From a virus (lineage: Duplodnaviria; Heunggongvirae; Uroviricota; Caudoviricetes): a stretch of DNA of 4,989 bases. Below are positions 1 through 3,000 of this stretch, one piece after another. A program made the position numbers. The stretch's first letter is position 1. The number at the start of each line of letters is the position of its first letter. Location of the stretch: IMG/VR virus record IMGVR_UViG_2537561713_000001, one strand, 5' to 3'.

Positions 1-3000
1 TACTTAAAGTAACCCGCAAATTTTGTGAGTTACTTAAAGTAACCCGCAAATTTTGTGAGTAGTTTAAAGCTACCCGCAATTCTTTAAGGTCATTACCAAC
101 AACTTTGAAAAAGTGTTTCCCTTCAACGAAGCGTACTTTGTTCTCATGATGATTCTGGCGAATACGCACCGGCTCAGTGCCGTAAAGCTGCGCCAAAAGT
201 TCGGTGGTAATAACAGGAATCTGGTTATGGGTGATCGGGGAGAGAGTTTCAACAGAAATTTTAGTTGTCATAATGACGCCCTCTGGTGGTTTCTTAATAA
301 CTCACCACCGACGACGCCAATCGTCTGGTGGTGAACTGTGCAGGGTTGGCGTAACCGGGAAACCGACCGGCGCGGATCTCTCCGCCCCCACACAGCCCAC
401 CATAATTCAGATGTGCGCGTGCATACGACAATAAAAAACACGCTCGCGGCGTGTATCTGTCGCGGTCTCTATCCAGGACGCCAATCCCGACGCCAGATTT
501 TGCTGGCGTTTGAGGAATATAGCCCCGAATAAATCATCACGTCAATCACCTTGTTTTCCTCGCACGATGTCTTAGCCACCGGATATCCCACAGGTGAGCC
601 GTGTAATTGAAGGTTTTTACGTCAGATTCTTTTGGGATTGGCTTGCGTTTATTTCTGGAGCGTTTCGTTGGAAGGTATTTGCAGTTTTCGCAGATGATGT
701 CGGTGATACTTCGTCGCTGTCGCCTCATGCAGCCCTCCTGACGCCCAGCCCGATCGCCATCAATGCCGCTTTGGATACGGTAGTAAACATCCGTCGAGGA
801 CTGATGAACGGTCGCCAAATCAGCAACATTGAGCCTTTGCTGTTTCCCTTCTTCTCCAGCCCTGTCGATGGTTCGATAAAATTAATCCGTCCATCAGTGA
901 TGATGCGAACTTCGTCAACACTCTCCAGAGCCTTGCTGAACCATCCGACAGACATATCCTCTGGCACAAGCATCACTACCGTCTGTCGCTGTTGTATGCA
1001 CTGCTCAGCGGCTTTTTCCACCCACGGCCTGATATTGCTGTACGGTGGGTTATTCCAGATTGCACCGTGGCTTATCCACTCAGAATTTAGCGCGTCGTCA
1101 GCCTCAGTTAGCCAGTGAGCGCACAGAGCGTTTTTGTCGCTCGCAGCTGAATCCAGCCAGAATCCAAACTCAATATCCAGCGCATCAAAAAGCCAGAGCG
1201 GCGTTTGCCAGCAGTCCTTGTCGTGTGCTGGCGTATTTGATTTGATAGTCATGCAGCCTTCCCTTTTCGTTGTGACCATTCATACTCTCGCCGGGAGTCA
1301 TCACTCCACCGCACGTTGCGCTCTGAGCCGAACCAGAACATGATTTCGATAAGCTCAGTCATGCTGGCCTTTCGCATTTTGCTGGTACGCACGCCAAGCA
1401 TGACAACGCCACCGTCGATACCAGGCGCACTTCTTTGCTCCAGTTTTTTGGTCTTAAGCCACAGGGCAGTGAACAGGTCTTTCCAGTCTTCCGGCGCCAG
1501 CCGTTGACCATGCCATAGCACCTGACGCGAAACATCGTTCAGCATCGGCCACATGCGGTCATTCTGCGCTTTGCTGCGCTTGGGTTCTTTAACGTGGACT
1601 TCGTGGGGTGACTTGTCGTCGATGGGTAGTGAGAGAATGGCGTCTATGGCGTTATTTCTGATTGCTTCGTTGCGAAGCAGAAAGGTTTGCTTCATCTCCT
1701 GCTCTCCGGTTCCATTTTTCAGTAGCCGCAGCAACTGATGGTGCCCATGCCACCCTGGCTTCACAGAGGTCACATTCTGCATAGCCCCACACATCAATAT
1801 TTATTCCGGCCTCAACCCACAGACGAGCATTACCGCCGCAAAACGGACATTCTTTTAGCTTTGGCTGGGTTAATGATAGGTCGCTCATGCTCACTCCTTC
1901 ACTTAAAATCCAGACTCCGGATAATTCTGTTGCGCTGAAACTCATTGTTGAGTTTGAACAACCGTCGAAGAACACGGTCACGCGGATAGCGTCGTGCGGC
2001 AGGTGAATGCTCATACAACTCATCAAGCGGCAAACTGGACGATGAACGATACCGATACCAACGCACCAACTCTTCACGAAAATTAGCCCTGACAAGCTCA
2101 GCTATCGTACTCATTTCTTAAAACCTCCTCAAACGCATTCTGACGCATTTTTCATTCTCGCTGCTTATCGGTATACCTTGCACGTGCTTACCTCACCACA
2201 GAGCGATTGTGATGCCTTAAAAGCGATTTATTGAAGTGATATTTGCTTAATCGAAATTCTTTTCTTTGATTCCTGCGGCCCTGATGGCTTTCATTACTGC
2301 AATTACCGTTTTGTCACGCCCATCCTCATAACCCATCGCATAAGCACCTTCTTCACCATCTTTCCAAAGGTCGTCATTCGATTCGGGCCAGTCGATATCC
2401 AGTTCAATAGCTGCTCGCGATGCCTGCCATAAAGCCCACCAATCATTTAAGGAGTGACGAATATCCATGCTTGAAAATGCGAAGTACCTATCACCATTTC
2501 TTGCCTCGGTTATCATCTCGAATGGTAATCTCAATTTTTTGGCAACGTATTCCTCAAACTGCTTTCTTGATTCGTCCATATCAATCACCGTTAGTCGTTT
2601 CACTCACGAATCTGACAAAACCAGCCATGTTAATTTGCATGAGTTTTTTCAACACTTTGTCTCGTCGGCTACGTTTTGGTTTTGGCCTGTGATTGAATCT
2701 TTCACAAACTGGAAGGCTCGATGATTTCCAGTACCTATTACGCCTTGCTCCATCTTCAGCCATATCGGCATGAATAAGGTCTGCGAGTGTGCTCATATTC
2801 ACCTCTTCCAGTTACATTGGTTTTGTAATGTTGCTAGTCATCGTTCGAATAACAAAATGCGTAAGTAACCTTGCTTTCCACATGTAAATCTATTCAAGGC
2901 GAGATAAATCTACGAATACCGGACCTTTGTAATCTGGTCTTGATGCCCTTATGTATGAGCTAATAGTTTGTGCATCTTGCTTGTCCAGATTCATGACTTC

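Follow-up and report, generated by a model that had tools for sequence, protein, structure and literature searches.

The stretch of DNA analysed here (hereafter the window) is a segment of 4,989 nucleotides (nt) from the IMG/VR virus record IMGVR_UViG_2537561713_000001, and it is 100% identical to Shiga toxin 2 (Stx2)-converting phages of Escherichia coli O157:H7 (Stx2a_WGPS4, phage 1717). All of its genes lie on the minus strand, including an open reading frame (ORF) in the nin region of this lambdoid phage which is the subject of this report, and whose translation, MDESRKQFEEYVAKK...KEKNFD, gives a protein of 110 amino acids (aa). An earlier note on the same DNA, which gave no strand for the ORF, had described the product as unrecognised and had offered a DNA-mimicking anti-defence role or a toxin–antitoxin role for it. 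As set out below, the ORF is almost certainly a genuine and conserved delayed-early accessory gene of the nin region of a Stx2-converting lambdoid phage, with a product in the phiTE_015 family (PF26207, PHROG 343). In other words, it is a typical representative of a family that has already been named; the gene and the family are catalogued and are not a new kind, and the two specific mechanisms of the earlier note do not hold up. The most interesting feature of the gene is its intragenic mosaicism, in which two cassettes are exchanged within one short coding sequence. No paper describing this two-cassette mosaicism was found, an earlier description being still conceivable.

The coding sequence (CDS; its coordinates and those of the other features are collected in Table 1) is preceded by a Shine–Dalgarno-like motif, and its ATG starts one base past the TGA (2581–2583) of a basic DUF7301 gene. 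There is an alternative in-frame start, a GTG at 2603, but the ATG at 2579 is favoured because homologues that stand behind unrelated upstream genes also begin with MDESR. A CDS with exactly these coordinates is annotated in 100%-identical Stx phages in GenBank/RefSeq (Stx2a_WGPS4, 1717 gp31 and SH2026Stx1 gp31), in each case under the name 'hypothetical protein'. That the gene is real, and far beyond a chance ORF, follows from its 212 close homologues, from the 649 representatives at 50% identity that were gathered in a profile search, and from strong purifying selection; over the C-terminal 56 codons, comparison with a copy in a Hafnia prophage gives a non-synonymous proportion (pN) of 0.147 and a synonymous proportion (pS) of 0.90. 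The product contains 23 acidic (D + E) and 16 basic (K + R) residues and no cysteine, with an isoelectric point (pI) of 4.75 and a net charge of −7. Its negative excess clusters at residues 51–80, where windows of 20 residues carry charges of −5 to −7, and the aromatic-rich stretch of residues 58–87 has 13 acidic residues against 3 basic ones. The recomputed composition thus agrees exactly with the roughly 23 acidic and 16 basic residues in 110 aa of the earlier note, and the charge excess bears out the acidic patch which it had placed in the C-terminal half.

The direct profile score for the family assignment is that of phrog_343, which matches the protein over residues 1–110 at an E value of 1e-29 and carries the label 'unknown function'. 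Assignment to PF26207 goes via the homologues of the protein, all 120 of those listed bearing a precomputed PF26207 annotation, one of them being 96% identical to it. PF26207 is named Phage_phiTE_015, and some RefSeq genomes now use 'phiTE_015 family protein'. The protein after which the family is named, phiTE_015 of a virulent rV5-like Pectobacterium phage, aligns with the present family at all invariant residues (M1, R4, F7, W42, A44, S45, R46 and G90 in phiTE numbering; alignment A3, 29 members, with phiTE_015 as its first row). The two proteins have in common the motifs SRxQFExW and WxxW[QE]ASRAAIE together with a C-terminal A-G. The earlier description of the product as unrecognised is therefore apt for its function, but it does not extend to its family.

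Members of the family include, among lambdoid and P22-like phages, 933W L0091, Sf6 gp48, Stx2-1717 gp31 and proteins of VT2-Sakai, mEp213 and mEp235, to which a note in the phiTE record adds Orf41 of Pseudomonas phage D3; others are found in Pseudomonas Pakpunavirus (JG004), Skatevirus, Swiduovirus and Klebsiella phages, all of them annotated as hypothetical. The family consists of soluble proteins, about 90–110 aa long and mildly acidic, which are encoded by both temperate and virulent phages whose hosts are enterobacteria, Pseudomonas, Pectobacterium, Aeromonas and others, and every one of the 649 representatives is from a phage or prophage. The gene or pieces of it are present in 669 of 5,426 complete E. 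coli genomes (about 12%), at full length in 222. Carriage on plasmids, as a possible clue to an anti-defence leading region, was considered and set aside, the 10 records concerned having the look of prophage or chromosome-like sequence wherever they could be judged (very large, and with NinB in one).

Searches beyond the family itself gave little. A local copy of Pfam-A returned sub-threshold noise only (Glyoxalase_4, TryThrA_C) for the protein, its close homologues and the 123 members of alignment A2; NCBIfam and PADLOC gave no match for the protein, and sequence searches of the PDB, with the single sequence and with a profile, gave none at E ≤ 10. Fold searches against solved structures found no relative, and a fold search of BFVD found uncharacterised phage proteins only. 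Across the Pfam, NCBIfam, PADLOC and PDB sequence and fold searches, therefore, the protein has no enzymatic or structural signature. In some members of the family the N terminus is extended by about 36 aa. Extensions with a CxxC...CxC arrangement (P0124, P0134, P0152, P0165) resemble a zinc ribbon, and those beginning MRWAIKHKSGR (P0130, P0136, P0164, P0180) correspond to positions 1–35 of the PHROG 343 profile; a Pfam search of the extensions, in which clues to fusions were sought, gave no match. In P0176 the N-terminal domain is seemingly duplicated, as judged by eye.

Comparison of the family members (alignments A1, A2 and A3, the first with 26 members) shows a scaffold of three conserved segments which brackets two variable cassettes. 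The segments read M-x-x-S-R-x-Q-F-E-x-W, W-x-A-W-Q-A-S-R-A-A-I-E-I-E-L-P and A-I-R-A-A-G-I-K-V-K, and within them F8, W51, S54, R55 and G103 are invariant among the 123 diverse members of A2. The better of the models obtained with AlphaFold2 (AF2) has a predicted local distance difference test score (pLDDT) of 75 and a predicted template modelling score (pTM) of 0.61. It places helices at residues 2–16, 20–26, 38–57 and 85–101, the second and third of these being separated by a short hairpin, and a strand at 59–60 paired with a strand at 105–106; at residues 70–87, the core of the acidic patch, the pLDDT falls below 50. The acidic patch is the C cassette of this particular protein, of the type DIDWPExNDDxWKDGEEGAYAMGxEDGxDK, which is near-constant across Escherichia, Salmonella, Hafnia, Cronobacter and Enterobacter and which is under strong purifying selection.

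The two cassettes reassort freely between phages, with the conserved segments serving as recombination linkers. Among 165 proteins, a sample biased towards relatives of the window protein, there are 74 types of N cassette and 63 types of C cassette; at least 28 of the N types occur together with the C type of the window, and at least 9 of the C types together with its N type. The same mosaic structure is seen in the DNA. Identity of 97% to 933W L0091 starts at nt 149 of the gene, whilst identity of 97% to Sf6 gp48 stops at nt 176; one relative has in common with the gene only nt 1–31 plus nt 150 onward, and partial matches in E. coli genomes either begin at nt 149/150 or finish at nt 177. The breakpoint zone is thus nt 149–177 (window 2403–2431), inside the central segment, and from such sharp boundaries the conserved central motif is also the crossover site. 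The N-terminal segment likewise doubles as a 5′ recombination linker, and there is a separate 31-nt DNA match to the locus L050. Tandem paralogues, about 450 nt apart and differing in both N and C cassettes, occur at L018 (3277–3543 and 3989–4357), and a second such pair is found at L051 (3280–3543 and 3989–4330).

Table 1. Coordinates of the phiTE_015-family gene, its segments and the neighbouring features in the window
Feature	Position	Strand	Remarks
CDS of the 110-aa phiTE_015-family protein	2247..2579	minus	Stop codon included; ORF and translation; identical CDS in AP012538 and NC_049919
Conserved N-terminal segment MDESRKQFEEY, codons 1–11	2547..2579	minus	R5, F8, E9 invariant or nearly so; alignments A1–A3
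Variable N cassette, codons 12–47	2439..2546	minus	Predicted helix 2 and hairpin (AF2)
Conserved central helix segment WALWQASRAAIE, codons 48–59	2403..2438	minus	W51, S54, R55 invariant
Variable C cassette LDIDWPESNDDLWKDGEEGAYAMGYEDGRDKTVI, codons 60–93	2301..2402	minus	Aromatic-rich; the acidic patch of the earlier note
Conserved C-terminal helix and strand AVMKAIRAAGIKEKNFD, codons 94–110	2250..2300	minus	G103 invariant, K107 nearly so
Shine–Dalgarno-like GGTGA	2585..2589	minus	Read from the sequence; 5 nt ahead of the ATG at 2579
DnaB-type helicase	3733–4887	minus	First in transcription order
34-aa ORF	3632–3736	minus	Second in transcription order
HNH_3+AP2 homing endonuclease	3043–3654	minus	Transcriptionally upstream of the phiTE_015-family gene
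Hairpin terminator	3017–3044		Between the endonuclease and the PHROG 21123 ORF; 10-bp GC-rich stem, T-runs on both sides
34–40-aa ORF (PHROG 21123)	2890–3012	minus	Upstream of DUF7301
Upstream DUF7301 gene	2581..2796	minus	PF23975 at 1.8e-31, phrog_1785; pI 10.35; 71–73 aa
Second DUF7301 paralogue	1899..2114	minus	PF23975 at 3.8e-26; directly before Lar
Lar-like restriction-alleviation zinc-ribbon gene	1652..1888	minus	PF14354 at 2.3e-09, phrog_599 at 1.5e-38
NinB	1249–1695	minus	Downstream of Lar
Dam methyltransferase	725–1252	minus	Downstream of NinB
NinE, C4/isrK RNA module, antirepressor		minus	Downstream of Dam

The gene order of the window agrees with the placement given in the earlier note, between a Lar module and an HNH cassette, in that both flanks are found, the HNH_3+AP2 gene upstream and Lar downstream. 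The coupling to a small basic protein is also true in this phage, where a single base separates the two genes and the partner has a pI of 10.35. The gene is not, on the other hand, a ren equivalent, although the earlier note had put it in the ren/ninA-equivalent slot, because 933W carries ren and the family member L0091 side by side. Each of the two DUF7301 paralogues of the window (PHROG 1785, basic, about 71 aa) precedes a small acidic gene, the phiTE_015-family gene in one case and Lar in the other, and in relatives DUF7301 is found ahead of several different cassettes.

Across 127 unique contexts, the immediate downstream gene is NinB in 67, the two ORFs overlapping in many loci. Immediately upstream, a membrane protein of 68 aa (PHROG 1165) is encoded in 32 contexts and DUF7301 in 13, the remainder having PHROG 7185, PHROG 5903, a 60-aa hydrophobic ORF, ren or others; the family gene has no obligate partner. 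In lambdoid phages the replication genes always precede the gene and ninB follows it, with a replication module that varies (lambda-type P plus ren in 933W, a DnaB-type helicase in the window), and in virulent phages it sits within clusters of small early ORFs. A Lar-like gene adjoins it in phiTE, with an overlap of 8 nt, and stands one or two genes away in the window, 933W, swi2 and KFS-SE2. Counted by a motif regular expression, Lar-like neighbours occur within 1.2 kb in 14 of the contexts; an iterated Lar hidden Markov model was dropped, having drifted to unrelated genes that share junction sequences. The Lar gene of the window itself holds the slot directly upstream of ninB that is often held elsewhere by members of the phiTE_015 family.

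In this regard, the whole small-gene region is an array of cassettes joined by short boundary sequences. A 21-nt linker, AAGTGAAGGAGTGAGCATGAG, which comprises a stop codon, an AAGGAG ribosome-binding site and a start codon, joins DUF7301 to Lar in the window (1884–1904, minus strand). It is found again at L036 (4296–4316), at L061, L063, L065 and L066 (4302–4322 in each) and at 18 other loci, where it recurs behind different genes, genes of the phiTE_015 family among them, and it looks like a boundary sequence that would permit swaps of small-gene cassettes. The usual C terminus of the family, ...KVKE followed by the stop codon, is encoded by this same linker. A similar situation is seen at the ninB end of the array. 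The C terminus of Lar reads ...EANLSASQRSNQK, and the 3′ end of its gene overlaps ninB (window 1652–1700); family members directly upstream of ninB (P0019, P0022, P0024, P0035, P0036) end in ...EANIHASQRSNQK, that is, with the same ...SQRSNQK tail as Lar. Whichever cassette precedes ninB inherits this common tail because the tail is encoded by DNA that overlaps the ninB start.

With regard to function, the protein is tentatively read as a non-enzymatic early binding protein, which would act as an accessory factor in host takeover or counter-defence. It would be made early, from the N-antiterminated pR transcript, and would engage a macromolecule of the host or of a competing phage via its cassette-encoded surfaces, its role being an accessory one and not one in replication, recombination or virion assembly. 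A general anti-defence or host-interaction role is possible, and is the leading, if circumstantial, guess, being drawn from the early accessory locus, the presence of Lar and Dam nearby, the restriction of the family to phages, its hypervariable cassettes and its tandem paralogues. The earlier note had named two outcomes that would tell against its own reading, namely that the product confidently matches a phage family with a structural or housekeeping role and that its homologues decay; no such match was found and the homologues are conserved.

Several considerations weigh against a host-takeover or counter-defence role. The literature search found nothing relevant on the function of any member, nor does any annotation give one. 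The argument depends on location, in a nin region that houses recombination genes as well; furthermore, the diversity of the cassettes could mean relaxed constraint and frequent recombination with no arms race behind it. The association with Lar is a weak lead only, amounting to about 11% of contexts. In a 2025 study, an anti-defence search with DefenseFinder on phages of enterohaemorrhagic E. coli (EHEC) turned up nothing beyond methyltransferases, of which phi330 has none, Gam, and Ral, the last in two phages other than phi330 and phi345 (PMC12502783). Our own searches find that the EHEC phages phi330 and phi345 match the window gene region or a family member, and the family was not flagged in that DefenseFinder search, which covered both (PMC12502783). 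Finally, the negative fold searches are not conclusive, because the AF2 model is of moderate quality and leaves the acidic cassette unmodelled.

Taken further, the phiTE_015 family might be a two-cassette specificity platform, although the proposal is distinctly unlikely. A fixed scaffold would then present two independently exchangeable recognition modules, each for a different host immune or housekeeping target, which would be reassorted at the WQASRAAIE linker to track host diversity; the acidic cassette would supply one of these specificities, such as a bait that mimics nucleic acid or the tail of single-stranded DNA-binding protein (SSB).

Of the other explanations, a replication or recombination accessory factor, working with the phage helicase or with NinB/Orf as, for example, an adaptor to SSB, RecBCD or DNA ends, is unlikely but has the position of the gene in its favour: in lambdoid phages the gene keeps invariably to the interval between replication genes and ninB, and the frequent adjacency to ninB, with its 3′ overlaps, is what such a partnership would predict. 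Apart from position, its sole support is a set of noise-level fold matches to HRDC. The same gene is nevertheless found with unrelated replication modules, has no NinB beside it in phiTE, JG004 and swi2, and carries hypervariable, reassorting cassettes and tandem paralogues that are unexpected for a partner in core DNA metabolism. Moreover, the adjacency to ninB is explained by the layout of the cassette array, since Lar occupies that very slot in the window. A gene of benefit to the lysogen, or one for superinfection exclusion (a moron), expressed from the prophage, is improbable. Occurrence in the prophages of more than six hundred of the E. coli genomes would suit it (669 of the 5,426), as would hypervariability, a trait that exclusion and immunity functions likewise tend to show, but no promoter-like site on the strand of the gene was among those that the scan listed, PADLOC gave no match, and the family is also common in strictly virulent phages. 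A gene embedded in the pR operon beyond the strong terminator at 3017–3044 should also be silent in a lysogen.

The two mechanisms of the earlier note fare no better. A DNA-mimic anti-restriction protein, which would use its acidic patch as a stand-in for the DNA backbone and thereby block restriction–modification, bacteriophage exclusion (BREX) or RecBCD-type enzymes, would account for the acidic and aromatic nature of residues 58–87, for the strong conservation of that cassette, and for the proximity of Lar and Dam, which are both tied to restriction evasion. It is hardly probable all the same, given that the charge of the protein (−7, pI 4.75) is usual for the family, for which the median pI is 4.89 and the median net charge −5. 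Established mimics, Ocr among them, are much more acidic. The patch cannot be a mechanism of the whole family because just one of the C-cassette types, which number at least 63, contains it, most members having other sequences in its place; neither by sequence nor by fold was any solved protein matched, a set that would include the solved mimics, and the low AF2 confidence at the patch gives no rigid array of charges. As for one half of a toxin–antitoxin or similar two-gene module with the upstream DUF7301 protein, the single base between stop and start, the opposite pI values (10.35 and 4.75) and the recurrence of the DUF7301-then-family order in some relatives are all as expected for such a pair. 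This reading is already largely refuted by the missing conserved partner and must be regarded as very improbable: DUF7301 stands upstream in just the 13 contexts, the other upstream genes being unrelated to it, the member in 933W lacks it, it also stands ahead of Lar and other cassettes, and for neither protein do searches of PADLOC, Pfam and NCBIfam reveal a toxin or an antitoxin. What probability these readings leave over belongs to something else.

The closest comparison is with the phiTE_015 family itself, of which the window protein is a full-length member, with the same segments, invariant residues, size and early accessory location. Nothing essential differs; it has one particular pair of cassettes, and its end, KEKNFD, has lost the usual KVKE that overlaps the ribosome-binding site of the next gene. 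The restriction-alleviation proteins Lar and Ral of lambdoid phages also belong to the cassette array and, again, are small and have an early accessory role, but there is no profile match between the window protein and PF14354 (Lar), no CxxC...CxxC zinc ribbon or other cysteine motif, and the predicted fold is helical with a two-stranded sheet. Ocr, ArdA and T7 gp5.9 are similarly small, acidic, early and phage-encoded; in contrast to these, the charge density of the window protein is far lower, its acidity is confined to an exchangeable cassette, and there is no similarity of fold or sequence. Lambda Ren is encoded, like the window protein, by a non-essential gene between the replication and nin genes, but is unrelated in sequence. 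The last 13 residues of lambda Ea22 (L172 848–1396) are like those of the family, ...SDAGIRIKGE and stop as against ...RAAGIKVKGE and stop, the ea22 gene having AAAGGAGAGTGA at its stop, and both encode an AAGGAG-type ribosome-binding site beside the stop codon. This likeness suggests that C-terminal peptides are partly set by the ribosome-binding site of the next gene. Homology to Ea22 was rejected (hhalign probability 4%, with no similarity outside the C-terminal end), as was homology to lambda orf63 (DUF1382), for which the hhalign probability was 0.2%.

The gene is carried by Shiga toxin phages of E. coli O157:H7 and by the well-studied 933W and Sf6. Were the protein indeed a counter-defence or host-takeover factor, it would be a compact case of specificity shuffling within one 100-aa protein, and a large family would be added to the catalogue of anti-defence proteins.

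Two further observations concern non-coding elements of the window. The hairpin at 3017–3044 comes directly after the HNH-AP2 gene and resembles a bidirectional intrinsic terminator; for transcription to pass it, the phiTE_015-family gene and the downstream nin genes would need antitermination. Further downstream, Rfam detects on the minus strand a C4 antisense RNA at 324–407 (66.7 bits) and isrK at 433–509 (74.7 bits), with c4 a1/b1 target sites, slightly sub-threshold, at 470–522 on the same strand. The C4, isrK and target sites lie directly upstream of the antirepressor gene and form a c4-ant control module like that of P1/P7 immI, and the 'hypothetical protein' that GenBank places at window 268–441 overlaps the C4/isrK RNA gene and may be a mis-call.

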